64,000 nt of DNA from Betaproteobacteria bacterium. GTDB lineage: Bacteria > Pseudomonadota > Gammaproteobacteria > Burkholderiales > Ga0077523. Where the stretch lies: NCBI GenBank assembly GCA_025350245.1, contig JANXYG010000052.1:12265-76264 (forward strand), written 5' to 3'. Positions 7,226 through 61,133 of this stretch are shown here, piece after piece; position 1 is the first letter of the stretch, and each line of letters starts with the position of its first letter. Position numbers and translations under genes: made by a program. The notes under the pieces were generated by a model. That model saw only the letters and a program-made list of their open reading frames with translations, did no database searches and was not told the DNA's origin.

Positions 7226-7296
7226 CTGGCGGGCTCGCAGGGCCTCGCGGGTCGCGCGCCGAGGTCGGCGCCCCACGGGGCCGAGGCGGGACGCAC

Positions 7297-12571: not shown

Positions 12572-12665
12572 AATGAAACGTCCACCCCCAGGCTCCGCTG
12601 CGCTACGCCTTCCTCCTCGAGGGGGCCGGTGTCCTCGGGGGGGCCGGTTGTGGGCACCGTGGGAG
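12569..12665 (+). repeat. Structured intergenic repeat, family A (diverged 3' half)
   Basis: The same 12-mer TGAAATGAAACG contains the gmaS stop. It is followed by TCCACCCCCAGGCTCCGCTGCGCTACGCCTTCCTCCTCGAGGGGGCCGGTGTCCTCGGGGGGGCCGGTTGTGGGCACCG. Hairpin 2 stem is CGGTG/CACCG. Confidence 0.85.
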
Positions 12666-12672
12666 ACATGAC

Positions 12673-15712: not shown

Positions 15713-16306
15713 ATGTCCGCGAACGAAGCGCAGCTCTACCGATTTCTCGGTACCCGGGTCCGCGAACTCAGGCTCAAGAACGATTTGACCCTGGGCGAGA
15801 CCGCGACTCAGGCGGGCATCAGCCAGGGCATGTTGTCGAAGATCGAGAACGGGCAGGTGGCGATGAGCCTCGATACGCTGGGCAAGGTGGGGCGGGCGCT
15901 CGGCGTGCCGGTGGGAGATCTGTTCCGCGATTTCGATCTGCCGGAGGGCGGTGCGAAGTTCGTCAAGAATGGTGAGGGCATCGAGGTCGTGCGCCGGGGC
16001 ACCCGCAGCGGCCACACCTATCACCTGCTGTCGTACGATAAGGGTCCGCGCCGCAGTTTCGAGCCGTTCCTGGTGACGATCAACGATGCCTCGGAGGTTT
16101 TTCCGAGTTTCGAGCACCCTGGTACCGAGTTCATCTATGTGCTCAAGGGACGCATCGAGTATCGCCATGGCCAGCAGACGTACCTGCTGGAGCGTGGCGA
16201 TGTCCTGACCTTTCGCGGTGATGTGCCCCACGGCCCGGAGAAGCTGCTCGAAACGCCCATCGAGTTGCTGTCGGTCATCGTGTACGGCACGAGTGACTCA
16301 CCGTAG
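15713..16306 (+). CDS. XRE-family HTH plus cupin-domain transcriptional regulator (paralog 1)
   Basis: 197 aa from the internal Met of ORF 15650..16306. The HTH is LTLGETATQAGISQGMLSKIENG; the C-terminal cupin is HPGTEFIYVLKGRIEYRHG..GDVPHG. Architecture resembles PuuR-type amine regulators. Confidence 0.8.
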   Translation: MSANEAQLYRFLGTRVRELRLKNDLTLGETATQAGISQGMLSKIENGQVAMSLDTLGKVGRALGVPVGDLFRDFDLPEGGAKFVKNGEGIEVVRRGTRSGHTYHLLSYDKGPRRSFEPFLVTINDASEVFPSFEHPGTEFIYVLKGRIEYRHGQQTYLLERGDVLTFRGDVPHGPEKLLETPIELLSVIVYGTSDSP

Positions 16307-27469: not shown

Positions 27470-28150
27470 ATGACTGAGAATCCATCCCGCTCCGGCACCG
27501 CGAACAGTGCCGGGTCACGAGAGGCACCGAAAGTCGACACTCCCTCGGTCCCGCCTACTCGGGAAGGCAGCACCGGCTTGGAGCGCCATATCGGCCACGT
27601 GCTCAAGTCGCTGCGGCTGCAGCAGAAACTCACCATCGCCGACGTCGCGGCAGAAGCCCGCATCAGCCGGGGCATGCTCTCGAAGATCGAGAACGGCCAG
27701 TCCTCCGCCAGTCTGGAGACGCTCGCCAAGCTGTGCGACGTGCTGGGCGTTTCGCTCGGCCACCTGTTCAGGAACTACGACCGACCCGATGGCGGTGCCC
27801 AGCTGGTAAAGGACGATGCCGGCATGGAGGTCGTACGCCGGGGCACCAAGCGCGGCCACACCTATCAATTGCTCGCCTACGACAAGGGGCCGCGCAAGAG
27901 TTTCGAGCCGTTCCTCATCTCGATGGATGACAGCAGCGAGATCTTCCAGAGCTTCGAGCACCCCGGCACGGAGTTCATCTACATGCTCACCGGCAGGATC
28001 GACTATCGCCATGGGCAGCACACCTATGTGCTCGAACCGGGCGATGCGCTCACGTTCCGTGGCGAGGTCCCACACGGACCAGAGAAGCTCCTGGAAGTCC
28101 CGATCAGGTTCCTGTCCGTGATCGTCTACAGCGAGCCGGGCGACGGCTGA
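27470..28150 (+). CDS. XRE-family HTH plus cupin-domain transcriptional regulator (paralog 2, with an about 35 aa N-terminal extension)
   Basis: 226 aa. The HTH is LTIADVAAEARISRGMLSKIENG; the cupin is HPGTEFIYMLTGRIDYRHG..GEVPHGPEKLLEVPI. Collinear with the 15713..16306 product. Confidence 0.8.
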   Translation: MTENPSRSGTANSAGSREAPKVDTPSVPPTREGSTGLERHIGHVLKSLRLQQKLTIADVAAEARISRGMLSKIENGQSSASLETLAKLCDVLGVSLGHLFRNYDRPDGGAQLVKDDAGMEVVRRGTKRGHTYQLLAYDKGPRKSFEPFLISMDDSSEIFQSFEHPGTEFIYMLTGRIDYRHGQHTYVLEPGDALTFRGEVPHGPEKLLEVPIRFLSVIVYSEPGDG

Positions 28151-33210: not shown

Positions 33211-33302
33211 CACGTAACAGGCGCCTCGGTACCTTCCTTGCTTTCCGCGCCGTTTTGACCGCAGCTTGCGGGCGCGTAACAAATACCGCTAAAGCGCTCG
33301 GA

Positions 33303-33340
33303 AACCCGACCGCTTTCAGCGCCCCGGGTTTTTTCTTTTC
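33303..33340 (+). terminator. Possible weak terminator after yifB
   Basis: AAACCCG..16-nt loop..CGGGTTT followed by TTTTCTTTTC. The large loop makes it only a weak candidate. Confidence 0.3.
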
Positions 33341-33354
33341 AGGGACCACATTCC

Positions 33355-37104
<3,750 letters not shown>

Positions 37105-37219
37105 GTTGACGCCCACCCCCAGGCTGCGCTGCGCTGCGCCTTCCCCCTCGAGGGGGCGCCCCGTCCTCGGGGGGGCCCTGTGGGCGGGGTCCCTTCGTTT
37201 CGGATGTTTCCTTCGTTCA
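37105..37219 (+). repeat. Structured intergenic repeat, family A, first of a tandem pair
   Basis: The metH stop and leader TGAGTTGAC are followed by GCCCACCCCCAGGCTGCGCTGCGCTGCGCCTTCCCCCTCGAGGGGGCGCCCCGTCCTCGGGGGGGCCCTGTGGGCGGGGTCCCTTCGTTTCGGATGTTTCCTTCGTTCA. Confidence 0.9.
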
Positions 37220-37330
37220 GCGCCCCCAGGCTGCGCTGCGCTGCGCCTTCCCCCTCGAGGGGGCGCCCCGTCCTCGGGGGGGCCCTGTGGACGGGGGCCC
37301 TCCGCTTGCCAGAGTTCCCGCCTTGGCTGG
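37220..37330 (+). repeat. Structured intergenic repeat, family A, second of a tandem pair
   Basis: GCGCCCCCAGGCTGCGCTGCGCTGCGCCTTCCCCCTCGAGGGGGCGCCCCGTCCTCGGGGGGGCCCTGTGGACGGGGGCCCTCCGCTTGCC..; a head-to-tail direct repeat of the previous copy. Confidence 0.9.
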
Positions 37331-37486
37331 TCCGGCCGCTCACCGGGTCTGGAGGCTGCCGCAACCGGGATCGTGAATCGGAGGTACTGGTCGATGATGA
37401 TGATCGCATGGGTCGATTCGGCGTCGATTGCAACTGTCGACGGACGCCGCGGTCACAGCCGGCATGACCGGCCGGCCACCGCTGCG

Positions 37487-38956
37487 ATGAACCTCTCCCG
37501 TTTCCTGCTTCCCGTGCTGTTGCCCGTCTGCACGAGCTTGTTCGCGGCCGATCGCATCCATCGCTACGAGGTGACGGTAGACCCGCAACTGCGCCAGCTC
37601 GATGTCCACGCCTGCTTCGCCGGGCGGCCGCCCGCCGAGCTGTCGGCCGAATCGCTTGATGCATCCGGCGCGTTCGTCGACGGCCGTGTCGCCGACCGGC
37701 GCCAGAGCATCGTCCCGAACGGGACCGACATGAAGCTCAAGGACCTGCCCGACAACGGCTGCATCCGCTACAGCGTCGACATCGCCCACCTGCCCAGCAT
37801 GAACGACGCGTTTGGCGCCGGTAACCAGCGCGTCGGGCGCGATCTGCTGACATCGACCGGTGTCTGGTTCTGGCGGCCGGCCGAAATGGGTGCCGATGAA
37901 GACATCGAAGTCGCCTTTCATCTACCGCCGGGCATGAGCGTGTCGGCGCCCTGGCCACCGGTCACGCCCGCGCGCGATATGCCCACTTTCAAGGTCGGGC
38001 GCGGCGCCTTCGACCGGCCGTCGAACGTGGCCTTCGGCCGATTCGAAGAGGTGGCGATCGAAGTGCCCGGTGCCGTTCTCCGGGTCGCGATCCTCGATGG
38101 CAGTCCGCCGATGAGCGTCGAGTCCGCCCGTCGGTGGCTGCACGATGCCGCCAGTTCCGTGGCGTCGATCTACGGGCGGTTTCCGGTGCGCTCGCCGCAG
38201 GTTCTGGTGCTCCCGGGTGCCCGGGCCGCGGAGCCGGCGCCATGGGCATTCGTATCGCGCGGGGGCGCCGCAGCGGTTCACTTCGACGTCAATCAGCGGC
38301 GCCCGTTGCGCGAATTCGTCGACGACTGGACTGCAGCGCACGAGATGTCGCACCTGCTCCTGCCCTACGTCTCCCTCAACGAATCGTGGCTGTCCGAAGG
38401 GATCGCGTCGTACTACCAGAACATCGCGCGGGCGCGAAGCGGCGCGGTGACACCCGAAGAAGCGTGGCAGCGCATGCATTCGAGTTTCCGGCGGGCCGCC
38501 GAATGGGCCGCTCGCACGCCGACCATCACGCTTGCCCAGGCCGCTGCCCGCATGTATCGCGACGGTGGCTACATGCGGGTCTACTGGTCGGGAGCCGCCA
38601 TCCTGATGCTGGCCGATATCCAGCTGCGTGAACAATCGGCCGGATCGCAATCCCTCGACAGCGTGCTCGGCAGGTTCGCCGACTGCTGTCTCGATCCCGA
38701 CCCCGAATGGACCACGCGACAGGTATTCGCCAAATGGGATGAGCTGTCGGGCACCGGCATCTTCCGCGCGCTATACGACCAGTACGTCGATGCCGGCGGT
38801 TTTCCCGATCTGGTGCCGGTCTATGCGCGCATCGGGCTCGAGTCGCTCGGCGGCAAGATCGGGCTGCTGGATGCGGCACCGCAAATCGCGGTTCGCGACG
38901 CCATCATGGCCCGCGGCAACTACACGACACCGGCCGAACTGCTCGATCGTCGCTGA
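37487..38956 (+). CDS. Secreted putative zinc metallopeptidase (gluzincin-like; HEMSH ... WLSEG)
   Basis: 489 aa from the internal Met of ORF 37058..38956. Signal peptide MNLSRFLLPVLLPVCTSLFA. HExxH (AAHEMSHLLL) is followed 15 residues later by WLSEGIASYY, as in the M1/MA clan. Confidence 0.55.
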   Translation: MNLSRFLLPVLLPVCTSLFAADRIHRYEVTVDPQLRQLDVHACFAGRPPAELSAESLDASGAFVDGRVADRRQSIVPNGTDMKLKDLPDNGCIRYSVDIAHLPSMNDAFGAGNQRVGRDLLTSTGVWFWRPAEMGADEDIEVAFHLPPGMSVSAPWPPVTPARDMPTFKVGRGAFDRPSNVAFGRFEEVAIEVPGAVLRVAILDGSPPMSVESARRWLHDAASSVASIYGRFPVRSPQVLVLPGARAAEPAPWAFVSRGGAAAVHFDVNQRRPLREFVDDWTAAHEMSHLLLPYVSLNESWLSEGIASYYQNIARARSGAVTPEEAWQRMHSSFRRAAEWAARTPTITLAQAAARMYRDGGYMRVYWSGAAILMLADIQLREQSAGSQSLDSVLGRFADCCLDPDPEWTTRQVFAKWDELSGTGIFRALYDQYVDAGGFPDLVPVYARIGLESLGGKIGLLDAAPQIAVRDAIMARGNYTTPAELLDRR

Positions 38957-38989
38957 CCGCGGGCGGGTCCGGCGGTTATCATCGCTGAC

Positions 38990-39439
38990 ATGGAACCGTT
39001 GTTTGCTTGGCTGCATTTCGTGGCGATGCTCGCGCTCGGTTCGACCCTCGTGGCCGAACTGGTGCTGTGCACGGCGTCGTTGCGGGCGGCCCAGCTCGCC
39101 GCATTGCTTCGGGTCGACTCGCTCTATCTGCTGGCCGCGGTGGCCGTCCTGGCAACCGGTCTTGCGCGCCTGATCTGGTTCGCCAAAGGCCCCGGCTTCT
39201 ATCTGTCCAATCCGTCGTTCCAGATCAAGATCGGCTTGTTCATCGCGATCGGCCTGCTATCGTTGTCACCGACTCGGCACTATGTGCGCTGGCGCCGCGC
39301 GGCCCGCGATGGTCGCGGTGATCCGCCGCCCGCCGAGATTGCGCGCGTGCACCGCTACCTGGTGGCCGAACTCGTACTGTTGGCCGCGATGCCCTTGATG
39401 GCGTCACTCATGGCGCGCGGCATCGCTGTCTGGAACTGA
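38990..39439 (+). CDS. Small integral membrane protein (DUF2214-like)
   Basis: 149 aa with four hydrophobic segments. Family name from memory only. Confidence 0.5.
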   Translation: MEPLFAWLHFVAMLALGSTLVAELVLCTASLRAAQLAALLRVDSLYLLAAVAVLATGLARLIWFAKGPGFYLSNPSFQIKIGLFIAIGLLSLSPTRHYVRWRRAARDGRGDPPPAEIARVHRYLVAELVLLAAMPLMASLMARGIAVWN

Positions 39440-39559
39440 AAATGAGGACCACCCCCCCAGGCTGCGCTTGTGCTCCGCCTTCCCCCCTCGAGGGGGCGCA
39501 GCGTTCCTCGGGAAACCCAGCGGAGGCTGCCCCTTCGCTTCAGAGTTTCCCTTCGTTCA
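39437..39559 (+). repeat. Structured intergenic repeat, family A, full-length
   Basis: TGAAAATGAGGA (includes the stop) is followed by CCACCCCCCCAGGCTGCGCTTGTGCTCCGCCTTCCCCCCTCGAGGGGGCGCAGCGTTCCTCGGGAAACCCAGCGGAGGCTGCCCCTTCGCTTCAGAGTTTCCCTTCGTTCA. Confidence 0.9.
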
Positions 39560-39649
39560 GCATTCTCGGGGGATGCTGCGGACATGACCGATTGATTCAG
39601 AATCCTCTGATCTCCATTCGTTCCCCATCCTGAAACGGTACTGTCCTTC

Positions 39650-41059
39650 ATGAACCACGACATCGTTTGGCGCGACGCCATCGATCTCACGCGCCTCATC
39701 CAGGCGCGTGAAGTTTCCGCCGTCGAGGTGGCGCGAGCGCACATCGCGCAGATCGAGCGCGTGAACCCGGTCATCAACGCGTTCGTCACCATGACTTTCG
39801 ATGCGGCGTTGATCGACGCCGCCGACATCGATGCGCGCATCGGTCGTGGCGAACCGCCGGGCCCGCTCGCCGGCGTTCCCGTCGGCCACAAGGATCTCGC
39901 CGTCACCAGAGGCGTGCGTACCACTTTCGGTTCGCCCATCTTCCGTGATTTCGTGCCGAACGAGGACGCGCTCATCGTCGAACGTCTGAAGGCGGCCGGC
40001 GCGGTGACGCTCGGCAAGACCAACACGCCTGAATTCGGTGCCGGCTCGCAGACCTTCAATACCGTCTTCGGCGCGACCCGCAATCCGTGGGACCCGATGA
40101 AGACACCGGGCGGCTCCAGCGGTGGCGCCGCGGCGGCGCTCGCGACCGGCATGGTCCCGATCGCCGACGGCAGCGATCTCGGGGGATCGTTGCGCAATCC
40201 CGCGAGCTTCTGCAATGTGGTCGGCCTGCGTCCGTCTCCCGGCCGGGTGCCCAATTGGCCGAGCCCGAACGCCTGGTTTTCGCTTGGCGTGGTGGGGCCG
40301 ATGGCGCGCACGGTGGGCGATGTCGCACTGATGCTGTCCGCGATCGCCGGACCGGATCCGCGATCGCCGGTTGCCTACGATGAAGCGGGCGCGGGCTTCG
40401 CACGGCCGCTGGGGCGCGATTTCGCCGGCGTGCGGGTCGCCTGGACTGCCGATTTCGGCGGGCTGCCAATGGAGCCCGAAGTCCGGGAGGTGCTGGCAGC
40501 GAGCCGGGCCACCCTCGCGGCGCTGGGCTGCATCGTCGAGGACGCGCTTCCCGATCTCGCCGGTGCGGACGAGATCTTTCAGGTCCTGCGGGCCTGGAGC
40601 TTCGAATCCACCCACGGCACCTTGCTGGCGAAGCATCGCGGTCAGATGAAGCACACGGTGATCTGGAACATCGAGGAAGGGCAGCGTCTGACCGGCGCCG
40701 ATGTCGGGCGCGCGGAATGCCTGCGCACCGGGCTTTTTCATCGGCTGCGGGCGTTCTTCGAGCGCTACGATTTCATTGCCGGGCCGGTGGCGCAGGTACT
40801 CCCGTTCGATGTCTCGATCGAGTATCCATCGGCGATCGACGGCGTGCCGATGGGAAACTACATCGAGTGGATGAAGTCCTGTTATCTCGTGTCGGCCACC
40901 GGATTGCCGGCGCTGTCGGTGCCGGCGGGTTTCAGCCGTGGCGGACTGCCGGTCGGGCTGCAACTGATCGGCGGCCACCGCGATGATTTCGGCCTGCTGC
41001 AACTCGGGCATGCCTTCGAACAGGCCACCGGCGCCAGCCGGCGCCGACCGCCAATCTAG
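39650..41059 (+). CDS. Amidase (amidase-signature family)
   Basis: 469 aa. GKTNTPEFG and GGSSGGAAAALA amidase-signature motifs. Confidence 0.85.
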   Translation: MNHDIVWRDAIDLTRLIQAREVSAVEVARAHIAQIERVNPVINAFVTMTFDAALIDAADIDARIGRGEPPGPLAGVPVGHKDLAVTRGVRTTFGSPIFRDFVPNEDALIVERLKAAGAVTLGKTNTPEFGAGSQTFNTVFGATRNPWDPMKTPGGSSGGAAAALATGMVPIADGSDLGGSLRNPASFCNVVGLRPSPGRVPNWPSPNAWFSLGVVGPMARTVGDVALMLSAIAGPDPRSPVAYDEAGAGFARPLGRDFAGVRVAWTADFGGLPMEPEVREVLAASRATLAALGCIVEDALPDLAGADEIFQVLRAWSFESTHGTLLAKHRGQMKHTVIWNIEEGQRLTGADVGRAECLRTGLFHRLRAFFERYDFIAGPVAQVLPFDVSIEYPSAIDGVPMGNYIEWMKSCYLVSATGLPALSVPAGFSRGGLPVGLQLIGGHRDDFGLLQLGHAFEQATGASRRRPPI

Positions 41060-41158
41060 GCGGTCTGCAACGCTCGAACGCGGGTATCATCGCGCGACTT
41101 CGCGGCCAGGGTGCCCGCACCCGCGCTGTCCTTCACCCCCACACATCCGCGAGATCCC

Positions 41159-42019
41159 ATGACCCACGCAATGCATCGTTGTCTTGCCCTTGCTCTGGTG
41201 GCGGCCGTTGCCTGCTGCAATGCAATGGCCCAAACCGAGGCCACTCGCAAATCCAACCAGCCGGAACGCCCCAAGTCCGCGAAGCAGATCAACCGCGTCT
41301 TCGTGAAGGATATCGAGGGCCTGTGGATCACTGCCGACTACGCAAGCGCACTGCGCGCGACGCGCATGCCGCATCAGGCAGCGCGCAAGGCGCGCCCCGT
41401 GGTCGTCAACATCCAGAAAGAGGGGCGCAGCTATCCGATCCTTCGCACCGACTTCGACAAGGCGGTCATGCAGCGTGTTCTCGACATCGAGCCCGACAAG
41501 GCGCCCAACACCAACCGCATCGTCGCTGCCAACAGTGACACCGAAGCGGTTGCCGCGAGCGAAGCCACTTACATTCCGTTTCGCGGGCAGAAAGGGGTGC
41601 AAGGCCGTTTCGACACGCTATCCATGGCCGAGCCGCAGTTCTCTCGTGGCAAGTTCCGCACCTACATCCGGTTGGTCGACAGCAGCCTGGTCGGCTTCAT
41701 CAATGGCGTCGTCCTGGCGGGCAGATACACCGACGAACAGGGCCGCGGGTACCAGTTCACCGAAACCGGCGAGGCGACGTTTCCGGATACCTCGTTCCCC
41801 TATGAAGTGTCGCTGGCCGCGCTCGGCGCCACCTGCGAATACTTCGAGACCCCGGACGATAAGGTGGCCGGCGGCAAGCGCCGCACCGGCTTCGCCTGGG
41901 TCGGCGGCAAGCTGCAGTTGTTTGAGGCAACCGGTGATTCGCCGGCCAAGGTCCGGTGCCGCAAGAAGCCCTTCGCCGTGCTGACGCCGCAACCGGCCGA
42001 AAGCGCGGGCAAGACCTAG
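41159..42019 (+). CDS. Hypothetical exported protein
   Basis: 286 aa from the internal Met of ORF 41111..42019. Signal peptide MTHAMHRCLALALVAAVACCNAMA-Q. No recognisable domain. Confidence 0.5.
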   Translation: MTHAMHRCLALALVAAVACCNAMAQTEATRKSNQPERPKSAKQINRVFVKDIEGLWITADYASALRATRMPHQAARKARPVVVNIQKEGRSYPILRTDFDKAVMQRVLDIEPDKAPNTNRIVAANSDTEAVAASEATYIPFRGQKGVQGRFDTLSMAEPQFSRGKFRTYIRLVDSSLVGFINGVVLAGRYTDEQGRGYQFTETGEATFPDTSFPYEVSLAALGATCEYFETPDDKVAGGKRRTGFAWVGGKLQLFEATGDSPAKVRCRKKPFAVLTPQPAESAGKT

Positions 42020-42074
42020 CAGCCGGCGGTCCGCCCGCCCCTGCTCCCGGGCGGTGCGCCTGACACCGATTTTT

Positions 42075-42096
42075 CGTGGCGTCGCGCGACGCCACG
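42075..42096. repeat. Perfect 22-bp palindrome upstream of mgtE
   Basis: CGTGGCGTCGCGCGACGCCACG, flanked by TTTTT (5') and AAA (3'). 52 nt before the mgtE ATG. Confidence 0.7.
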
Positions 42097-42147
42097 AAAC
42101 TACAATCCGGGGCTGACCCGAATCGCAGGTGCCACGGACTGCCCGTC

Positions 42148-43593
42148 ATGTCTGAAGTGCAAGAGACTCGCCCTCGACCGGAGACTTTGCGGGAGCACCT
42201 GAAACAGGTTCAGGACATGCTTCGGAAACACCGGCTCGTCGAGCACCTGGTGCACAGCCAGGACATGCCGCGGCACGAGCTGGTGGAGTCGCTCGTCCAC
42301 AAGCAGAACCTCGCCGAACTGCGCAAGAAGCTCGACGTGCTGCACCCGGCCGACGTCGCCTACATTCTTGAATCGGTGCCGCTGGCCGAACGGCGGGTGG
42401 TGTGGGATCTGGTCAAGGCGGATCGCGATGGCGAGATCCTGCTCGAAGTGTCGGATGCGGTGCGCGAATCGCTCATCGCGAGCATGGCACCGCAGGAACT
42501 GGTCGCGGCGGCCGAGCATCTCGACACCGATGAACTCGCCGACCTCGCCCCCGATCTTCCCGGCAATGTTCTCGAGGACGTCTTTCGTTCGTTGTCGGTG
42601 GAGGAGCGCCAGCAGTTGCGCGCCGCCATGTCATATCCGGAGGATTCGGTCGGCGCCCTCATGGATTTCGACATGGTAACGGTGCGCGAGGACGTCACGC
42701 TCGAAGTCGTGCTGCGCTATCTGCGGCGGCTCGACGAGCTGCCGGACCACACCGACCAGTTGTTCGTGGTCGATCGTGACGAAAAGCTCAAGGGTCGTCT
42801 GCCGGTCAACCGGCTGCTGGTGAGCGATCCCGAGCGGCTGGTCGGCGAACTGATGGATACCGATGTCGTGCGCTTCACGCCGCAGCAGAATGCGGACGAG
42901 GCGGCCCAGGCATTCGAGCGCTATGACCTCGTCTCCGCCCCGGTGGTCGACGCCAGCGAGGCGCTGGTCGGCCGGGTCACGGTCGATGTGATGGTCGACT
43001 TCATCCGTTCAGAGTCCGAAACCGAAGTGCTCAATCTCGCCGGCCTGCGCGAAGAGGAGGACATCTTCGCCTCGGTCTGGAAATCGGCGAAGAACCGCTG
43101 GACCTGGCTCGCCATCAATCTCGTCACCGCCTTCGTCGCTTCGCGGGTGATCGGTCTGTTCGAGGGCAGCATCGAGAAGCTGGTGGCGCTGGCGGCGCTG
43201 ATGCCGATCGTCGCCGGTATCGGTGGCAACTCCGGCAACCAGACCATCACCATGATCGTCCGCGCCATGGCGCTCGGACAGATCACCCCGCGCAACGCCC
43301 GTGGCCTGCTCAAGAAAGAGCTCGTGATCAGCCTGCTCAACGGCCTGGTATGGGGATCGATCTTCGGCGTGTTCGCGACTGTCCTGTATCACAGCATTCC
43401 GCTCGGCCTGGTGATGATGTCGGCCATGGCGCTCAATCTGATCGTGGCGGCCAGCTTCGGTGTGTTCATCCCGATGCTCCTGCATCGGTTCGGGCGCGAC
43501 CCGGCGGTCGGGTCGAGCGTGCTGATCACAGCCATCACCGACAGTGGCGGGTTCTTCATCTTTCTCGGACTGGCAACGCTATTCCTGGTGTGA
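42148..43593 (+). CDS. mgtE: Magnesium transporter MgtE
   Basis: 481 aa from the internal Met of ORF 42076..43593. N-domain, CBS pair and TM domain, with GIGGNSGNQ and ITDSGGFF motifs. Confidence 0.9.
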   Translation: MSEVQETRPRPETLREHLKQVQDMLRKHRLVEHLVHSQDMPRHELVESLVHKQNLAELRKKLDVLHPADVAYILESVPLAERRVVWDLVKADRDGEILLEVSDAVRESLIASMAPQELVAAAEHLDTDELADLAPDLPGNVLEDVFRSLSVEERQQLRAAMSYPEDSVGALMDFDMVTVREDVTLEVVLRYLRRLDELPDHTDQLFVVDRDEKLKGRLPVNRLLVSDPERLVGELMDTDVVRFTPQQNADEAAQAFERYDLVSAPVVDASEALVGRVTVDVMVDFIRSESETEVLNLAGLREEEDIFASVWKSAKNRWTWLAINLVTAFVASRVIGLFEGSIEKLVALAALMPIVAGIGGNSGNQTITMIVRAMALGQITPRNARGLLKKELVISLLNGLVWGSIFGVFATVLYHSIPLGLVMMSAMALNLIVAASFGVFIPMLLHRFGRDPAVGSSVLITAITDSGGFFIFLGLATLFLV

Positions 43594-43700
43594 GGTGACA
43601 GGTGACGCCCACCCCCAGGCTGCGCTGCGCTGCGCCTTCCCCCTCAAAAGGGGGCGCAGCATCCTCGGGGAACCCTGTGGTGCTGCCCGTACGATTCGGG
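43591..43700 (+). repeat. Structured intergenic repeat, family A
   Basis: TGAGGTGACAGGTGAC is followed by GCCCACCCCCAGGCTGCGCTGCGCTGCGCCTTCCCCCTCAAAAGGGGGCGCAGCATCCTCGGGGAACCCTGTGGTGCTGCCCG. Hairpin 1 loop is changed to CAAA; hairpin 2 stem is GCAGCA/TGCTGC. Confidence 0.9.
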
Positions 43701-43766
43701 CCGGTCCTGCATCCGCAGCGCGCCTGCTCGCGTATCGTCCGGCTCCTCACCCATCGATCGCTGCAC

Positions 43767-44630
43767 ATGGCCTTGAAGCATTCTCTTGCCCTGATCGGCG
43801 TCGCGGGCGTCGCGTTGGCGGTAGTCGCCGCCTGCTTGCCGCTGAAACTGATCAACGCCGTATCCCACGCACAGGGCGTGGAGCGCACCGGGAACATCGC
43901 CTATGGCACCGATCCGCGCCAGCGGCTCGATGTCTACCGTCCCGCTGGCGCGCGTGAACTGCGGCCACTGGTGGTGTTCTTCTACGGCGGTTCCTGGCAG
44001 GGCGGAAAGCGCCAGGACTATCGCTTCGTCGGCGAAGCGCTGGCCGAACGCGGCTTCGTTGCCGTGGTGGCCGACTACCGCGTGCATCCGCAAGTGCTGT
44101 ATCCGGAGTTCCTCAGGGATTCGGCAGCGGTTGTGGCCTGGTGCCGCGGGCATGCGGCAGAGTTCGGTGGCGACGACCGCCGCCTGTTCCTGATGGGCCA
44201 CTCGGCCGGCGCCTACAACGTGGCCATGCTGGCGCTCGACCGGCGCTGGCTCGATGGCGTCGGCCTCGATGCGCGGCGCGATGTGCGTGGCTGGATCGGC
44301 ATCTCCGGTCCGTACGATTTTCTGCCGATCAAGGACCCGGTCGTCCAGGAGATCTTCGGCCCGAAGCAGAACTGGCCCGACACCCAGCCGATCAATCACG
44401 CGAGCGCCGGGGCGCCGCCCGCGCTGCTGCTCACCGGCGATGCCGACGACAAGGTGTCCCCACGCAACACCCGCAACCTGACGCAGAAACTGCAAGGGCT
44501 GGGCGTCGGCGTCGAGAAGGTGCTGTTCCCCGGCGTGGGGCACGTGCGCACCGTGGTGTCGTTCGCCGGGCCCTTCCGGGATGGTGTCCCGGTGCTCGAG
44601 GAAGCCGCTCGCTTCATCGATGCGCATTGA
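43767..44630 (+). CDS. Alpha/beta hydrolase (esterase/lipase-like)
   Basis: 287 aa from the internal Met of ORF 43602..44630. N-terminal anchor, oxyanion region VVFFYGGSW and nucleophile elbow GHSAG. Confidence 0.8.
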   Translation: MALKHSLALIGVAGVALAVVAACLPLKLINAVSHAQGVERTGNIAYGTDPRQRLDVYRPAGARELRPLVVFFYGGSWQGGKRQDYRFVGEALAERGFVAVVADYRVHPQVLYPEFLRDSAAVVAWCRGHAAEFGGDDRRLFLMGHSAGAYNVAMLALDRRWLDGVGLDARRDVRGWIGISGPYDFLPIKDPVVQEIFGPKQNWPDTQPINHASAGAPPALLLTGDADDKVSPRNTRNLTQKLQGLGVGVEKVLFPGVGHVRTVVSFAGPFRDGVPVLEEAARFIDAH

Positions 44631-45689: not shown

Positions 45690-46369
45690 TCCCGAGCTGG
45701 CGTCCCGACGCCGGGCAGGCGCGGTGGCTCAAGGTCGCCTTGTTTCTGCTGTGCCTTGCGCCTTTCGTGCGCCTGGGGTGGCTGGCCTGGCACCACGGTC
45801 TGGGCGCCAACCCGATCGAGCACATCACCCGCGCCACCGGCTGGTGGACACTGACCTTCCTGATGATCACGCTCACAGTCACGCCGGCGCGCAAGCTGCT
45901 GTCGCAACCATGGCTGCTGCGCCTGCGGCGCATGCTCGGCCTGTTTGCGTTTTTCTACGGGAGCCTGCACTTCACCACCTACCTCTGGCTCGACCAGTTC
46001 TTCGATGTCGGCGCGATCATCAAGGATGTGATCAAGCGGCCCTTCATCACGCTTGGCTTCAGCGCCTTCGTGCTGCTGATTCCGCTGGCGGCGACCTCCA
46101 CCAATGCCATGGTCAGGCGTCTCGGCGCAAGACGTTGGCAATGGCTGCACCAGGCGGTCTTCGTGATCGGCACGCTCGGCGTCATCCACTTCTGGTGGCT
46201 GGTGAAGAAGGACATCACCGAGCCGCTGATCTTCGCGGCGATTCTGTCGGTGTTGCTGGGTACGCGCGTGGTCTATCGCCTGCGCGATACCCGGCCCGAA
46301 GCCCGAAACCGGAGCGTTGTCCGGCCTTACCCCCGAGGACGGGGCGCCCCCTCGAGGGGGAAGGCGTAG
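45686..46369 (+). CDS. msrQ: Protein-methionine-sulfoxide reductase heme-binding subunit MsrQ; last about 15 codons lie inside a repeat element
   Basis: 227 aa with an ATGA overlap with msrP. Ferric-reductase-like TM domain (His in LHFTTYLW and LGVIHFWW). The C-terminal tail ..[15 protein letters not shown] is encoded by the antisense of the repeat at 46326-46388. Confidence 0.85.
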
Positions 46370-46388
46370 CGCGCAGCCTGGAGGGCTA
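46326..46388 (-). repeat. Structured intergenic repeat, family A, 3'-truncated copy (sense is minus)
   Basis: Sense read: TAG (stop of 46386..47000) CCCTCCAGGCTGCGCGCTACGCCTTCCCCCTCGAGGGGGCGCCCCGTCCTCGGGGG. Only the first hairpin and the start of the second are present. Confidence 0.8.
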
Positions 46389-47063: not shown

Positions 47064-47549
47064 CTACCCTGTCGCCTCGGGCGCTAGGCGTCTGACATCA
47101 TGCCCGAGCCGGATCGCGGCTTCCCGGCCGCGGTAGTAGCCTGGCATCAGGAACAGCTCGTGGTAGCCCAGGGCCGCATAGAAGCGCCGCGCGGCGGTGT
47201 TCGAGGCGCGCGCCTCCAGATAGACCGTGCCGATACCGGCGGTGCGGGCGCTGTCTTCGAGCCAGGTAACCAGCGCGCGCCCAAGGCCCCGGCCATGCCA
47301 GGCGGGGTCGATCGCCAGCAGTGAAAGATGCGCGTGCTCATCGTGGAACTCCATGATGGCGAAGCCGGCACGGGCATCGCCCGCCTCGGCGACGATGGTG
47401 CAGGTGGCGAGGTCGGCAATGGCGCGGGCAACCCGGTGTCCCGTCCAGCGCCAGCCCAGGCCCGACTCGATCAGGTCTCGCGACCAGCTGGCAATGCGGG
47501 GCGCGTCGTCGATGCTTGCCAAGCGGATGACGGGTGGTGGCATCACCAC
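47064..47549 (-). CDS. GNAT-family N-acetyltransferase
   Basis: 161 aa. Acetyl-CoA pocket HGRGLGRALV; ..ARRFYAALGY. The start is either GTG 47549 or ATG 47543. Confidence 0.8.
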   Translation of the reverse strand: MVMPPPVIRLASIDDAPRIASWSRDLIESGLGWRWTGHRVARAIADLATCTIVAEAGDARAGFAIMEFHDEHAHLSLLAIDPAWHGRGLGRALVTWLEDSARTAGIGTVYLEARASNTAARRFYAALGYHELFLMPGYYRGREAAIRLGHDVRRLAPEATG

Positions 47550-47550
47550 G

Positions 47551-47636
47551 GCGCCCGCCCGGCCGCCCCGAAGGGCGCCGGCCCCCCATCGGGGGGTAGC
47601 GACCGAAGGAAGCTTGGGGGGGAGGTCAACTCAGCG
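47551..47636 (-). repeat. Structured intergenic repeat, subfamily B (sense is minus)
   Basis: Sense read: (lysA stop) TGACGCTGAGTTGAC CTCCCCCCCAAGCTTCCTTCGGTCGCTACCCCCCGATGGGGGGCCGGCGCCCTTCGGGGCGGCC. Hairpins are CCCCCCGATGGGGGG and GCCCTTCGGGGC. Confidence 0.8.
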
Positions 47637-48884
47637 TCAGGCGGGGAGTCGGTGTTCCAGCGCGAACAGCCCGCGCGTCGATTCGCGTTCACGAACGAGG
47701 TGCAGGTCGGCACCGTCCACCATCACCTCCGCCGCCCGCCCGCGGCTGTTGTAGTTGGATGCCTGCGCCATGCCATAGGCGCCGGCCGAGAGCACCGCCA
47801 GCAGGTCACCTTCGGCCACTGCGAGCGTCCGGTCGCGGCCGAGAAAATCGCCACTCTCGCAGACCGGTCCGACGACATCGTAGGTGACCGCCTCGGCCCG
47901 ACCCGGCGTCACCGGCACGATCTCGTGATGGGCGTCGTAGAGAGCGGGCCGGATGAGATCGTTCATCGCGGCATCGACGATGGCGAAGTTCTTCGCGTCG
48001 CCGCGCTTGAGATACTCCACCCGCGTGAGCAGCAGGCCGGCGTTGCCCACCAGGTTGCGGCCCGGCTCGAAAATCAGCTTCTGCGGGCGCTCGTGCAGGC
48101 GCGCCAGCAAGGCGTCGATGTAGGCGCGAGGCGGCGGCGGTGTTTCGTCGCGGTAGCGGATGCCCAGACCGCCACCGACGTCGATGTGCTCGAGCGCGAT
48201 GCCGTCCCGCGCCAAAACATCCACCAGGCCGAGGACCCGGTCGAGCGCGTCCACGAACGGGGCGACGTCGGTGATCTGCGACCCGATGTGGCAGTCGATG
48301 CCGGTGACGCGGATGCCGGGGAGGGCTGCGGCCTCGCGATACAGAGCCGGCGCATCCTCGAAGGCAACGCCGAACTTGTTCTCGCGCAGGCCGGTGGAAA
48401 TGTAGGGGTGCGTGCCGGCGTCGACATCCGGATTGACGCGCAGGCTCACCGGCGCGGTGCGGCCGAGCGCTCTCGCCACCGCCGACAGCCGCCGCAGTTC
48501 GCCCGCCGATTCGACGTTGAAGCACAGGATGCCGGCGGCCAGCGCCTGGCGCATCTCGGCCTCGGTCTTGCCCACCCCGGAGAAGACCACTTTGCGGGGA
48601 TCGCCCCCGGCCGCGATCACCCGCTCCAGCTCGCCGCCCGACACGATGTCGAAGCCGCTGCCGAGACGCGCGAACAGATCGAGGATCGCGAGATTCGGGT
48701 TCGCCTTCATGGCATAGCACACGAGGTGCGAGCGATTGCCCAATGCGTGTTCGAAGGCCAGAAAGGCCGCGGTCAGTGCCGCGCGCGAATACACATAGCA
48801 CGGCGTGCCGAAGCGCGCGGCGATCTCGGTCAGCGGTACCTGTTCGACCCGCATCACGCCGCCGGGCTCGACGAGGTTGTTCAC
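47637..48884 (-). CDS. lysA: Diaminopimelate decarboxylase
   Basis: 415 aa. PLP-dependent fold-III decarboxylase (YAMKANPN with the PLP Lys; CESGDFL). GTG start, overlapping the upstream small-gene stop (GTGA). Confidence 0.9.
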   Translation of the reverse strand: MNNLVEPGGVMRVEQVPLTEIAARFGTPCYVYSRAALTAAFLAFEHALGNRSHLVCYAMKANPNLAILDLFARLGSGFDIVSGGELERVIAAGGDPRKVVFSGVGKTEAEMRQALAAGILCFNVESAGELRRLSAVARALGRTAPVSLRVNPDVDAGTHPYISTGLRENKFGVAFEDAPALYREAAALPGIRVTGIDCHIGSQITDVAPFVDALDRVLGLVDVLARDGIALEHIDVGGGLGIRYRDETPPPPRAYIDALLARLHERPQKLIFEPGRNLVGNAGLLLTRVEYLKRGDAKNFAIVDAAMNDLIRPALYDAHHEIVPVTPGRAEAVTYDVVGPVCESGDFLGRDRTLAVAEGDLLAVLSAGAYGMAQASNYNSRGRAAEVMVDGADLHLVRERESTRGLFALEHRLPA

Positions 48885-51028: not shown

Positions 51029-53127
51029 GAGGCGCCTCCGGATGCCAACTTCGAGATGTCCGCCACGGCATTCATCAGCCGGTCGAGCCGGCTGAGCAGA
51101 CCCAGGCGATTCATGCGGATGCTGTGCTCGTCGGCCATGACCATGACCTGATCGAAGAAGGCGTCGACCGGCGCGCGCGCACCGGCCAGCAGCTTGAGCG
51201 CTTCGGTGTAGTCCTCGCCCCGCACCAGAGACGCGACCCTGGGTGCGAGTTGGTCGACGGTGGCGAGCAGCGCCTTTTCGGCGGGCTCCCGCATGAGCGC
51301 GAGGTCGGGGTCGGGCGCCTGGATGTCGGCCTTCTTGAGGATGTTGCGGATGCGCTTGTTGGCTGCGGCCAGGCTCTCGGCTTCGGGCAGTCGCGCGAAT
51401 GCGCGGACCGCCTCCAGACGCGGCAGAACCAGATCGATGCGCCCCGGCCGCTGGGTGACGACGGCGTCGACGGCGTCGACTTCGAAACCGCGCTCGCGCA
51501 GATAGCCGCGAAGCCGCTCGAGCATGAAGCCGTACAGCTCGAGTGCGACGCCCGGCGCCACGGTCTCATCCGAGAACTGGCCGCGCGCCAGATCGAGCAG
51601 GTGCGGCAGATCGAGGGGCAGCCGGCTCTCGGCGAGGATGCGCAGCACGCCGAGCGCGGCGCGCCGTAGCCCGAAGGGATCCTTGTCGCCGGTGGGAACC
51701 AGACCGACGCCATAGATGCCTGTCAAGATGTCGAGCTTGTCGGCGAGCGCCACGGCCGCGGCGATATTGCCTGCGGGGAGGGTGTCGTTGGCGAAGCGCG
51801 GGCGATAGTGATCTTCGATGGCTCGTGCGACGGATTCGTCCTCGCCGTCGTGGCGTGCGTAATGCATGCCCATCGTGCCCTGGAGTTCGGGAAACTCGCC
51901 GACCATATCGGTGACCAGATCGGCCTTTGCAAGCCGACCCGCGCGCTCGGCCTTGCCGACATCCGCGCCCAGGAGCCCGGCGATGGCGCCGGCGAGTTTC
52001 GTGAGCCGCTCCACTCGCCGCAGTTGCGTGCCGAGCTTGTTGTGATAAACCACCGAGCCGAGCTTGTCGACGCGCGAAGCCAGCGTGTGCCGGCGATCCT
52101 GATCGAAGAAGAATCGTGCGTCCGCGAGGCGTGCCCGCAGCACCCGTTCATTGCCGCGCACGATGTTCACCGGGTCGTCGGTCTGGATGTTCGAGACGAT
52201 CAGGAACTGCGGCAGCAGCTGGCCGGCGGCATCGACCAGCGGGAAGTATTTCTGATGCTGCTTCATCGACAGGATCAGGCATTCCTGCGGCACCGCGAGA
52301 AATGCCGCGTCGAAACGGCCACCGTACACCACCGGAAACTCCACCAGGGCGGTCACCTCGTCGAGCAGCGCCCCGGCGTCGGCGAGCCGAGCCTGCCGGG
52401 TTTCTGCAGCAGCGTGCAACGCCGTCGCGATAGCGGCATGCCGCAGGGCGAACTCGCCCAGCACCCGTCCTTCATCGTGCAACTGGCGCTGGTAGGAATC
52501 GGCCGAGTCGATGCGAATCGGGCCCTTGCTCATGAACCGGTGGCCTTGCGTTTCGCGTCCGGCGGCGAGCCCGAGCGCAGTCACCGGCACGACATGGCTG
52601 CCGTGCAGGGCTACCAGCGCATGCACCGGCCGGACGAACTGCACGTCTTCGCCGGCCGGTGTCTGATAGCGCATCACCTTCGGAATCGGCAACTGCGCCA
52701 GCGCTTCGGTGAGCGCCTGCTGCAGGCCGTCCGCGAGGGCGATGCCGGCGGCGACGAAGCTGCGGTACAACGTGTCCTGCTTGCCGTCGGAAGCGCGTTC
52801 GAGTTGATCGAGCGTGACGTGCGCGGCGTTCATCGCGGCCAACTTCCTGGTCAGGGCCTGGGTCGGCAGGCCGTCGGTACCGATGGCGACCGAGACCGGC
52901 AGAACCTTGTCGCGTCGCGGCTGGTCGGGTGCCCGTGCGAGCACCGACTCGATGGTGACGCCCAGGTGCCGCGGCGTCGCCACGATCCGATGCGCCGCGT
53001 CGGGTGCGACCAGGCCGCGCTTTGCCAAGCCGTTGAGGATGCCGGCGGCGAATGCGTTGCCGATGGCATCGAGCGCTTTCGGCGGCAGCTCTTCGGTGAA
53101 CAGCTCAACCAACAAGGTGGCGTTCAT
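51025..53127 (-). CDS. glyS: Glycine-tRNA ligase beta subunit
   Basis: 700 aa from the internal Met (MNATLLVELFTEELPPKAL) of ORF 51025..53157. Confidence 0.95.
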   Translation of the reverse strand: MNATLLVELFTEELPPKALDAIGNAFAAGILNGLAKRGLVAPDAAHRIVATPRHLGVTIESVLARAPDQPRRDKVLPVSVAIGTDGLPTQALTRKLAAMNAAHVTLDQLERASDGKQDTLYRSFVAAGIALADGLQQALTEALAQLPIPKVMRYQTPAGEDVQFVRPVHALVALHGSHVVPVTALGLAAGRETQGHRFMSKGPIRIDSADSYQRQLHDEGRVLGEFALRHAAIATALHAAAETRQARLADAGALLDEVTALVEFPVVYGGRFDAAFLAVPQECLILSMKQHQKYFPLVDAAGQLLPQFLIVSNIQTDDPVNIVRGNERVLRARLADARFFFDQDRRHTLASRVDKLGSVVYHNKLGTQLRRVERLTKLAGAIAGLLGADVGKAERAGRLAKADLVTDMVGEFPELQGTMGMHYARHDGEDESVARAIEDHYRPRFANDTLPAGNIAAAVALADKLDILTGIYGVGLVPTGDKDPFGLRRAALGVLRILAESRLPLDLPHLLDLARGQFSDETVAPGVALELYGFMLERLRGYLRERGFEVDAVDAVVTQRPGRIDLVLPRLEAVRAFARLPEAESLAAANKRIRNILKKADIQAPDPDLALMREPAEKALLATVDQLAPRVASLVRGEDYTEALKLLAGARAPVDAFFDQVMVMADEHSIRMNRLGLLSRLDRLMNAVADISKLASGGAS

Positions 53128-53227
53128 GACAGTCCGGAGCGAAGGGGCAGCGCCCACAGGGCTCCCCGAGGACGCTGCGCCCCCTCGGGGGGAAGGCGAA
53201 GCGCAGCGCAGCCTGGGGGGGGCGTTC
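53128..53227 (-). repeat. Structured intergenic repeat, family A, filling the entire glyQ-glyS spacer (sense is minus)
   Basis: Sense read: TGAGAACGCCCCCCCCAGGCTGCGCTGCGCTTCGCCTTCCCCCCGAGGGGGCGCAGCGTCCTCGGGGAGCCCTGTGGGCGCTGCCCCTTCGCTCCGGACTGTC followed directly by ATG (glyS). Confidence 0.9.
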
Positions 53228-54112
53228 TCATGCTGCCCTCTGGTTCGCGGCGAGCATCGGAAAGCCCAGTCGCTCGCGCGACTGGTAGTAGGCCTGCGCC
53301 ACCGCCCGGGCGAGCGTGCGGATGCGCCCGATGTACCCGGCCCGCTCGGTCACGGAGATGGCTCCCCGTGCGTCGAGCATGTTGAAGGTGTGCGCGCTCT
53401 TGAGCACCATCTCGTAGGCGGGAAGTGCCAGTCCGACGCCGATCAGGCGCTTCGCCTCGCCCTCGAAGTCGTTGAACTGCCGCAACAGCCAGTCGGCATT
53501 CGAGTGCTCGAAGTTGTAGGCCGACTGCTCGACTTCGTTCTGGTGGAATACGTCGCGGTAGGTGATGCCCGGCGTCCACACCAGGTCGAACACGTTCTCG
53601 ACGCCCTGCAGATACATGCACAGGCGTTCGAGGCCGTAGGTGATCTCGCCCAGCACCGGCTTGCAGTCGATGCCGCCGACCTGCTGGAAATAGGTGAACT
53701 GTGTCACTTCCATGCCGTTGAGCCAGACCTCCCAGCCCAGCCCCCAGGCGCCGAGCGTGGGATTCTCCCAGTCGTCCTCGACCAGGCGGATGTCGTTGAT
53801 CGTCGGGTCGATGCCGATGGCTTCGAGCGAACCGAGATACAGGTCGAGGATGTCCTGCGGCGCGGGTTTCAGAACCACCTGGAACTGGTAGTAGTGCTGC
53901 AGCCGGTTCGGGTTGTCGCCGTAGCGACCGTCTTTCGGGCGGCGCGAGGGTTGCACGTAGGCCGCACGCCAGGGCTCCGGCCCCAGGGCGCGCAGGAACG
54001 TCGCGGTGTGCGAGGTTCCTGCGCCGACCTCCATGTCGTAGGGTTGCACCAGCGCACAGCCGCGCATGCCCCAATAGTTCTGGAGCGTGAGAATGAGGTC
54101 CTGGAAATGCAT
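53228..54112 (-). CDS. glyQ: Glycine-tRNA ligase alpha subunit
   Basis: 294 aa from the internal Met ([14 protein letters not shown]) of ORF 53228..54244. Confidence 0.95.
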
Positions 54113-61027: not shown

Positions 61028-61056
61028 AATGTACTTTTCCGACCCCCCCTTGTCAA
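61028..61056 (-). promoter_or_regulatory. Sigma70-type promoter for the tRNA
   Basis: Sense read: TTGACA-17 nt-TACATT followed by a GC-rich discriminator CTGCGGCC. The -10 element ends 23 nt before the mature tRNA 5' end. Confidence 0.7.
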
Positions 61057-61060
61057 CCAA

Positions 61061-61130
61061 GTGAGACCCACCCCAGGTTGCGCTGCGCTGCGCCTTCTCC
61101 CAATGGGGCGCCGCGAGCTTGGGAGCGGCC
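61061..61130 (+). repeat. Structured intergenic repeat, short A/B-intermediate copy; the only one not behind a co-oriented stop codon
   Basis: GTGAGACCCACCCCAGGTTGCGCTGCGCTGCGCCTTCTCCCAATGGGGCGCCGCGAGCTTGGGAGCGGCC. Ends 3 nt before the ubiH-family ATG. Confidence 0.8.
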
Positions 61131-61133
61131 ACC

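Follow-up and report, generated by a model that had tools for sequence, protein, structure and literature searches.

The 64-kb stretch of betaproteobacterial DNA analyzed here (the window) carries, directly after the metH gene, two tandem units of a repeat that recurs in the window and in a close relative. We found that this element belongs to a lineage-specific modular intergenic repeat family with a unit of ~105 nt, in which the arms of one hairpin, termed P2, change in sequence from copy to copy and remain complementary. Our best reading, to which we assign a probability of roughly 0.6, is that the family is a transcribed mosaic repeat comparable to the REP/BIME and MIRU elements, with its fold constrained at the level of RNA.

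Covariation in the repeat unit downstream of metH

The metH product is, by its Pfam domains, a B12-dependent methionine synthase. The initial annotation had marked 37105-37219, and this span stands as unit 1 of two tandem ~105-nt units, with the correction that the start of the unit coincides with the metH stop codon. The features of the metH site are as follows.

33355-37104, + strand: metH open reading frame (ORF), 1249 residues, with Pfam domains Met_synt_B12, S-methyl_trans, Pterin_bind and B12-binding
37102-37104, + strand: TGA stop codon of metH; the repeat begins immediately 3′ of it
37105-37120, + strand: head of unit 1, GTTGACGCCCACCCCC, fitting the consensus RR-NTGA-(AA)CGYCCA-C5
37121-37141, + strand: hairpin P0 of unit 1, AGGC (37121-37124) and GCCT (37138-37141) around the loop TGCGCTGCGCTGC
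37143-37156, + strand: hairpin P1 of unit 1, CCCCC-TCGA-GGGGG, its stem invariant and its loop different among copies
37158-37190, + strand: hairpin P2 of unit 1, with the variable outer stem G-CCCCG / CGGGG-T
37191-37222, + strand: tail or spacer module CCCTTCGTTTCGGATGTTTCCTTCGTTCAGCG, connecting unit 1 to unit 2
37220-37326, + strand: unit 2, headless, with a degenerate tail 3′ of P2
37228-37248, 37250-37263 and ~37266-37296, + strand: P0, P1 and P2 of unit 2, with the P2 stem CCCCGT/ACGGGG

The head consensus contains a TGA of its own and an NTG start-like codon. In the conserved inner part of P2 in unit 1, TCCTCGGGGGGGCCCTGTGGG, U.G and G.U pairs accompany a T.T mismatch. The pair of units stands at the end of a transcription unit, with no downstream gene for coupling.

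For the covariation analysis, public genomes were scanned with a pattern for the 5′ module, CCCAGGCTNNGCTNCGCTNCGCCTTCC, which is blind to either of the hairpins described in the initial annotation (P1 and P2). The scan returned at least 68 loci, and among the matches listed nearly all come from the metagenome-assembled genome (MAG) "Betaproteobacteria bacterium OTE_88_metabat_364". This is a close relative, with a MetH 97.5% identical to that of the window and an 8-kb block syntenic with it at 87-93% DNA identity. The window's own sequence has its match in a MAG contig of GCA_043726285.1. A relaxed search of the window and the 68 loci (514 kb in total) gave 145 units, and 97 distinct units with a TCCTCGG-type second hairpin (P2 module B1) were aligned with MAFFT only to form alignment A2, in which columns are numbered below.

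The initial annotation had described a near-invariant segment flanked by a stem whose sequence differs between copies and stays complementary. All of the stem pairs that it listed were located at the copies it named, that at 39437 having a single G.G mismatch. With up to three mismatches allowed, there are eight occurrences of the conserved core TCCTCGGGGRNCCCTGYGG against 0.52 expected, and none of 100 shuffles reached eight. Likewise, the C5-6/G5-6 stem described for its first hairpin (P1) is kept around the loops TCGA, TCCA, TCAAAA, CGA, AAT and GAT.

RNAalifold applied to A2 recovered the second hairpin within a fold of three consecutive hairpins. P0 consists of AGGC/GCCT with a 13-nt loop and P1 of a C-run/G-run stem with a variable loop, and P2 has a variable outer stem of 4-6 bp around a conserved inner helix. 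This helix includes U.G and G.U pairs, is interrupted by a T.T or T.C mismatch and carries an apical loop of GGA/GAA type. The outer stem changes by compensation, pair 48/78 being AU in 51 units, CG in 24 and GC in 5, pair 49/77 GC in 46, CG in 24 and AU in 12, pair 50/76 CG in 86 and UA in 3, and pair 51/75 GC in 56 and AU in 26. In P0, pair 9/25 also covaries (GC in 84 units, CG in 12); in unit 1 this is the third pair, G37123-C37139. Pair 53/74 of P2 is U.G in 47 units.

Counted on this structure, 96.5% of cells are paired and 107 are double-change cells, compared with 31.9 ± 4.2 in column shuffles, of which 0 of 500 reached 107. When the registers were slid by 1-3 columns, only 6-26 double-change cells were obtained. 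Two columns that are unpaired in the consensus, 56 (T in every unit) and 70 (T or C throughout), argue for a specific imperfect structure. No covariation was found in P1, where the G run has alternative pairing options. Since P1 and the inner P2 helix are invariant, the fold there is neither supported nor contradicted.

We also observed complementarities between the hairpins. GCGCAGCG, the 5′ arm found most often in P2, is exactly complementary to the P0 loop CGCTGCGC (for example in the unit at 53124-53231), P2 arms of the CCCCG/CGGGG type (for example at 37158-37190) are able to pair with the P1 arms, and the P1 G run is able to pair with CCCC 3′ of P2. Such cross-pairing makes mutually exclusive folds possible.

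Selection on the fold or inheritance of stem types

The initial annotation attributed the compensatory changes to selection on the fold and allowed that stem variants might merely mark clonal subfamilies. We found that the normalized mutual information between paired P2 stem columns in A2 is 0.52, 0.57 and 0.61. When stem columns are compared instead with variable sites outside the pairing, the value is 0.02-0.20 for those enclosed by the arms (columns 63, 64 and 70) and 0.01-0.17 for those immediately upstream (columns 46, 36, 22, 12 and 1). The arms are thus linked to each other and barely to the sites between or beside them, so simple clonal subfamilies are insufficient and the claim of a selected fold is supported. 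The minor allele accounts for 2.7% in paired non-covarying columns, 11.9% in unpaired columns and 28% in covarying columns.

The P2 stems fall into about ten discrete types that are common to both genomes and have been shuffled by recombination: CAGCG/CGCTG, CCCCG/CGGGG, CCCCGT/ACGGGG, CAACAT/ATGTTG, CAGCA/TGCTG, CAGCAT/ATGCTG, CGGCG/CGCCG, CCGCAT/ATGCGG, CGGTG/CACCG and CAACA/TGTTG. For this reason, the number of independent compensatory events is of order ten, not of order a hundred. The small number of types, their recurrence in both genomes and their recombination as modules would also suit an explanation without selection on the fold, in which founder variants were amplified and the arms were kept complementary by quasi-palindrome correction, short-tract gene conversion or module swaps. 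Chimeric units with unmatched arms do occur (for example CCCCG with CGCTG), and a templated origin is conceivable given that GCGCAGCG complements the P0 loop and CCCCG/CGGGG mimics the P1 arms. However, whole-module swapping alone does not predict linkage between arms that skips the variable sites in between. Templated correction should moreover perfect the inner helix, and the T.T or T.C mismatch and the wobbles are kept in essentially all 97 units, which disfavors copying of one arm from the other. Variation also follows the division into loops and stems over three hairpins, and the orientation bias described below requires some selection. We consider this explanation unlikely, and the same holds for a purely mutational origin through hairpin-templated repair. 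From the linkage of the arms, the pattern of variability and the retained imperfections, we accept that the P2 fold is under constraint.

Orientation relative to genes and the level of the fold

By a crude call of coding strand and frame in the flanks, based on GC content at third codon positions and on stop-free frames, 80 arrays share a strand with their upstream gene, compared with 4 that lie opposite to it. Among arrays between co-directional genes, 40 are sense and 1 is antisense. So strong a bias could not arise as a by-product of replication-strand bias, and it points to a constraint acting via transcription or translation. The upstream stop codon lies 5-20 nt before the anchor CCCAGGC, and the commonest stop-to-anchor distances place it at one or other TGA in the consensus of the head, TGA-RR-TGA-(AA)CGYCCA; it is often the head's own TGA.

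P2 has a mean folding energy of -20.6 kcal/mol on the sense strand compared with -17.1 kcal/mol on the antisense strand, and the sense version is the more stable in 81 of 90 units, an effect of the conserved U.G and G.U pairs. For the unit as a whole, the antisense strand folds about equally well. Taken together, the 40:1 sense orientation and the greater stability of P2 on the sense strand favor RNA over single-stranded DNA as the level of the fold.

A GC-rich hairpin directly downstream of a gene and in sense orientation could also be an ordinary intrinsic (Rho-independent) terminator, repeated by happenstance. We regard this as scarcely credible, given that there is no T run after the stem, where the tail reads CCCCTTCGCTTC, and that a terminator scan covering 36500-44500 gives no hit at the elements. 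Several units moreover lie inside operons that need downstream expression (glyQ-glyS, soxB-soxD).

Modularity and turnover of the arrays

A unit is built in the order head (with its TGA and NTG codon), P0, P1, a second-hairpin module and an optional tail, and arrays hold one to three units in direct tandem. The second hairpin takes three forms: B1, B2 (for example CCAGTGCGCTTGGGAGCGGCCCGGCGCACACTGA), and either of these interrupted by a nested repeat, B3. The B2 stem likewise varies with its pairing kept. Units are joined either via the tail, giving a period of ~105 nt, or via the head, giving a period of ~80 nt, and the head-type junction is without the P2 3′ arm.

Comparison of orthologous sites shows how the arrays change. 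After mgtE, the window has 1 unit compared with 3 in the orthologous locus L037, where the region is 93% identical. The single window unit combines the rare P1 loop TCAAAA of the relative's unit 1 with the CAGCA/TGCTG P2 and the flank of unit 3, and this mosaic is a product of unequal recombination. The unit at 39437 differs from its L037 orthologue by point changes, one of which turns a G.T there into the G.G mismatch in the window. In relatives with 87-89% identical GlyQ, the glyQ-glyS spacer is 22-23 nt and holds no element, so the copy at 53124-53231 was inserted or is at least lineage-specific. No target-site duplication is evident at this glyQ-glyS copy. We note that the C-terminus of GlyQ in the window is longer than and different from that of the relatives L181-L185 (...GFPMLKTA*) and stops at the TGA of the repeat head (53124-53270, − strand); glyQ may have come to read through the former spacer after the element arrived.

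Structure-specific DNA recombinases, such as those acting on attC and IS608, read a variable stem together with conserved unpaired or wobble positions. P2 would suit such an enzyme, and a tentative possibility is that P2 acts in single-stranded DNA as the signal of a selfish mobile element, recognized by shape, through the conserved core, the bulges and the wobbles, by a transposase or recombinase in the manner of REP/RAYT, IS200/IS605 ends or attC. The covariation would then reflect selection for mobility and not RNA function. The family is highly repeated and lineage-specific, the element-free glyQ-glyS junction of relatives implies that insertion happens, and T.G is tolerated in DNA hairpins, so the strand asymmetry of P2 also suits one DNA strand. 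Against this, the 40:1 bias far exceeds what a replication-strand bias could yield by way of gene-strand bias. The units lack terminal inverted repeats, they have no GTAG/GTGG head external to the stem, and they are arranged in direct tandem, not as inverted doublets. The glyQ-glyS site shows no duplicated target. A transposase or integrase gene was not identified beside any copy, although no systematic search was made, and the changes between orthologous loci reflect unequal recombination, not transposition.

The nested B3 module, TGAGGCCGGACACAGACAGTCCCTGCGGACTGTCTGTGCCTGCCGAACGACAGCGGCCTCCGGCCGCTGG, has two perfect hairpins of its own and is absent from the window at up to three mismatches. 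It occurs in the public-genome loci L010 (5014-5046), L015 (4914-4946), L021 (1868-1900), L026 (532-564), L027 (1567-1599), L029 (6715-6747), L039 (967-999), L053 (5339-5371) and L061 (7046-7078). Where its context was read, B3 is nested in the second hairpin directly after TCCTCGGGGG or after the B2 loop, which suggests a preferred point of insertion or recombination.

Units of the B2 type were found in the window at 47520-47640 (− strand) and 61054-61157 (+ strand) and in loci L012, L024, L038, L043, L051, L053, L058 and L060. Their second hairpins read CAGTGCGC...GCGCACACTG, CAGCGCCC...GGGCGCTG or CGGCGCCC...GGGCGCCG. In most of them, 0-2 nt separate the CTGA that ends the 3′ arm from the ATG of the gene that follows, leaving no room for a separate Shine-Dalgarno site.

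Bridging ORFs in operons

In the window, a short ORF stretches across each of four in-operon units, from the start codon of the head to the start of the next gene. Between glyQ and glyS, the ORF has 35 codons and forms ATGA overlaps with both the glyQ stop and the glyS start. Between soxB and soxD, a 63-codon ORF (7109-7300) follows the arrangement TGA-A-ATG and ends in an ATGA overlap at the soxD start. The ORF between the glutamine-synthetase-like and GATase genes has 32 codons and stops 1 nt before the GATase ATG at 12673, and that of 47520-47640 (− strand), read from the sequence, has 28 codons and ends in TGATG at the start of the next gene.

Among arrays with an ATG head, the frame set by the head terminates at the start of the next gene in 19 cases, and the other open frame does so in 5 (p = 0.0066), and such an ending is found for 19 of 37 ATG heads compared with 8 of 49 GTG/TTG heads (Fisher p = 0.0009). 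With all heads pooled, the comparison of 27 arrays for the head frame with 17 for the other open frame is not significant. Among complete B2 units whose head-start ORF stops within 2 nt of the downstream ATG, all seven keep a length of 27-28 codons (six with ATG, one with GTG), and an eighth B2 unit (L043) has a 27-codon ORF ending at the head of the next unit. Two of these B2 ORFs contain internal frameshifts that are compensated before the stop. The compensated frameshifts and the kept length suggest selection on the frame and not on the peptide. A reading in which polyproline (PPPG) stalls the ribosome was rejected, as different heads place the same bases in different frames.

The bridging ORFs of in-operon copies, and the B2 units with their 27-28 codons and compensated frameshifts, raise the question of whether the element is a translated linker, either a coupling ORF of MIRU type or a small protein, with the complementarity of P2 being incidental. 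This is very improbable. Coding constraint cannot yield complementary changes in arms 20 nt apart, and differences in head length (ATGAAACG compared with GTGACG) shift the frame, so that no peptide is conserved. Many units also come last in their transcription unit, as at metH, and have no gene after them, and coupling at GTG/TTG heads is at chance level.

A proposed role as a transcribed junction element

We return to the reading of the family as a transcribed mosaic repeat with an RNA-level constraint. A unit would occupy the space from a gene's stop codon to the next feature. Because units are nearly always sense, they would be carried in mRNA, either between cistrons or as a 3′ untranslated region. 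The P2 stem would have to pair, with its outer sequence free and its inner core, including the wobbles and the mismatch, fixed. By analogy with REP/BIME, the hairpins may form a barrier in the transcript where the upstream cistron ends, acting as an exonuclease block, as a processing site or through modulation of translation termination, the last being possible because the hairpins lie within ~10-20 nt of the stop codon. Where an ATG-headed ORF inside an operon joins the upstream stop to the downstream start, translation downstream would stay coupled, as in MIRU. Arrays would expand, contract and swap P2 modules through recombination between units. We infer this combined function, a 3′ barrier or termination modulator together with a coupling linker, by analogy, and we infer the mode of spread as well.

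Several observations weigh against this account. The single sequence 37105-37219 does not fold significantly better than its shuffles (z = -0.80), its minimum-energy fold differs from the three-hairpin consensus, and the runs of C and G permit competing folds; the evidence is thus covariation and not thermodynamics. The P2 3′ arm is missing from some 12-15 of the 97 units, which lie at head-type junctions within arrays, so an intact P2 is dispensable in some units. Among single mismatches of the outer stem, G.U (~3) is no more frequent than A.C (~5), counts too small to tell RNA from DNA, and the RNA-specific signal is therefore confined to the conserved core wobbles, which are inherited and non-independent. 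The strand and frame calls behind the orientation counts are crude, and transcription through the element is deduced from its position only. Coupling by ORFs is not above chance in GTG/TTG-headed units. Finally, a translated bridging ORF would melt the hairpins, making it impossible for both roles to operate simultaneously on one mRNA.

If the RNA role is true, the family would be a compact natural system for the entry of a repeat into an operon (glyQS) without breakage, and it would show 3′ hairpins and coupling ORFs setting expression ratios. A related proposal, which we hold to be doubtful, is that the family is a proteobacterial counterpart of MIRU with an RNA layer, in other words a mobile cassette that inserts at gene junctions, brings its own stop and start codons and thereby keeps the flanking genes coupled in translation. 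Its P2 would be a structured RNA module whose variable stem and fixed core are read by a factor of the host or of the element. The stem types would in that case be functional alleles, differing for example in barrier strength or specificity, and not neutral ones, and expression ratios within essential operons such as glyQS could be re-tuned.

Copies in the window and searches for further relatives

By combining a repeat finder, a pattern search and a covariance model, we count 13 units in the window; the count draws on 12 significant covariance-model matches together with the two tandem units at 636-838. Besides the metH pair, the copies are the following.

636-838, − strand: two tandem units after the stop of the gene for a phosphoenolpyruvate (PEP)-utilising enzyme (839-2605, − strand), both with the P2 stem GCAACAT/ATGTTGC
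7105-7223, + strand: unit between soxB-like and soxD genes, P2 stem CCCCGT/ACGGGG
12569-12672, + strand: unit between a glutamine-synthetase-like gene and a GATase gene, P2 stem CGGTG/CACCG
39437-39590, + strand: unit after a DUF2214 gene, P2 GCAGCGT/AGGCTGC with the one G.G mismatch, followed by a short remnant of a second P2 core
43591-43714, + strand: single unit after mgtE, P2 stem GCAGCA/TGCTGC
46296-46388, − strand: degenerate unit after the TAA stop of a minus-strand gene
47520-47640, − strand: B2-type unit between two minus-strand genes, second hairpin CCGGCGCCC...GGGCGCCG
53124-53231, − strand: unit between glyQ and glyS, P2 stem GCAGCG/CGCTGC
61054-61157, + strand: partial B2-like unit upstream of a FAD-binding monooxygenase-like gene

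In the degenerate unit at 46296-46388, P2 is broken after TCCTCGGGGG, and the inserted sequence resembles B3 at its start only (TAAGGCCGGAC).

Searches beyond the close relative returned no further members. A gathering-threshold search of the whole window against Rfam 15 matched only a tRNA and SAM_alpha, and an E-value search of 37050-37400 gave only noise of up to 19.5 bits. The stretch 37100-37330 had no blastn match among 72,556 plasmids, viral contigs scanned with the 5′-module pattern gave no match, and a full-text literature search for the sequence strings of the element gave none. A metagenome scan with the P2 core matched 106 stretches, one match each, of which 4 passed a filter that asked for a flanking stem of at least 4 pairs or an upstream motif resembling the 5′ module. 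None of these carried the family's 5′ module or stem, and no stem types were gained, so we read these matches as chance or unrelated.

The SAM_alpha (SAM-II, RF00521) riboswitch match lies at 33237-33313 on the + strand, 40 nt upstream of metH, and is borderline, at 36.7 bits compared with a gathering score of 36. The SAM_alpha family is mostly alphaproteobacterial, and the match here is in an apparent betaproteobacterium. Separately, two stretches of ~390 nt at 15771-16165 and 27615-28009 (+ strand), 11.8 kb apart, are 72% identical and lie within paralogous regulator genes of the HTH/cupin type; for the first copy, the Pfam domains HTH_31 and Cupin_2 were assigned through locus L069. The GC-rich, stop-poor repeats also generate long spurious ORFs, such as that at 37058-38956 (+ strand, 632 aa, TTG start), which begins in the 3′ region of metH and runs antisense to apparent minus-strand ORFs. 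For annotation, recognizing the family averts false ORF calls through the repeats and mis-assembly of tandem arrays in MAGs of the lineage.

Comparison with known repeat systems

The family belongs to the class of bacterial intergenic mosaic repeats, with REP/BIME and MIRU as its nearest counterparts, and is not a new kind of system. Readings of the element as attC, as SECIS or as a leader peptide were rejected on sequence and on the housekeeping context of the genes.

Like REP/BIME, the units contain a short, GC-rich imperfect palindrome that is highly repeated and extragenic, P2 at 33 nt falling within the REP criterion of 20-40 nt, and they form mosaic arrays in combination with other motifs. 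Their stems likewise tolerate compensatory change. The location within operons and near stop codons is also shared, and it is there that REP/BIME affect mRNA stability and translation termination. According to PMC12306157, citing its reference 17, ribosomes stall and translation is lowered when a REP lies within 15 nt of a stop codon. The differences from REP/BIME are considerable: the units here are direct tandem with periods of ~80 and ~105 nt, not alternating in orientation, they are almost exclusively sense to genes, and each has three hairpins with head and tail modules and no sequence similarity to REP/BIME. There is no GT(A/G)G outside the stem, since the sole GTGG in A2 lies inside a hairpin (CCCTGTGG) and the feet are GCGC... 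and ...CCCC. A RAYT gene was not identified, in MAG fragments and with no systematic ORF screen of the loci. Without a GT(A/G)G foot and alternating orientation, the family does not qualify as REP of the RAYT type.

For MIRU, PMC12548453, citing Supply et al. 1997, describes an ORF in the repeat that is coupled to the neighboring gene. MIRUs also resemble the family in being direct tandem intergenic units in operons (40-100 nt) in the same orientation as the flanking genes, in having short ORFs (here those of the ATG-headed and B2 units) that touch or overlap the neighboring stop and start codons with coupling kept, and in varying in copy number between strains, comparable to the 1 and 3 units found here after mgtE. 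However, MIRUs belong to Actinobacteria and the present family to Betaproteobacteria, and homology is implausible from phylum and composition. MIRUs are also not defined by covarying hairpins. Many of the copies here are 3′-terminal and have no gene downstream, and ORF coupling exceeds chance in the ATG-headed subset only.

The BOX elements of Streptococcus pneumoniae and repeats of the RIME/ERIC type share the organization into head, repeated body and tail, the intergenic location and a predicted stable RNA structure, whereas their sequences and taxa are unrelated. We know of no report of strict sense orientation or of stop-codon abutment for them. The attC sites of integrons are similarly placed directly downstream of ORFs and co-oriented with them, and they too combine variable sequence with a conserved hairpin that is read structurally on one strand. 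In contrast, the present units have no RYYYAAC / GTTRRRY core sites, the head being RR-NTGA-CGYCCA and the tail CCCTTCGTTCAGC. Their neighbors are housekeeping operon genes (metH, glyQS, sox) and not cassettes, and tandem copies follow one another without intervening ORFs, with no integrase gene seen in the context.

REP, BIME, MIRU and BOX repeats are common, and their functions and modes of spread are poorly understood. The family described here unites features that are usually separate, namely hairpin covariation, near-absolute sense orientation, abutment of stop codons and bridging ORFs in essential operons.

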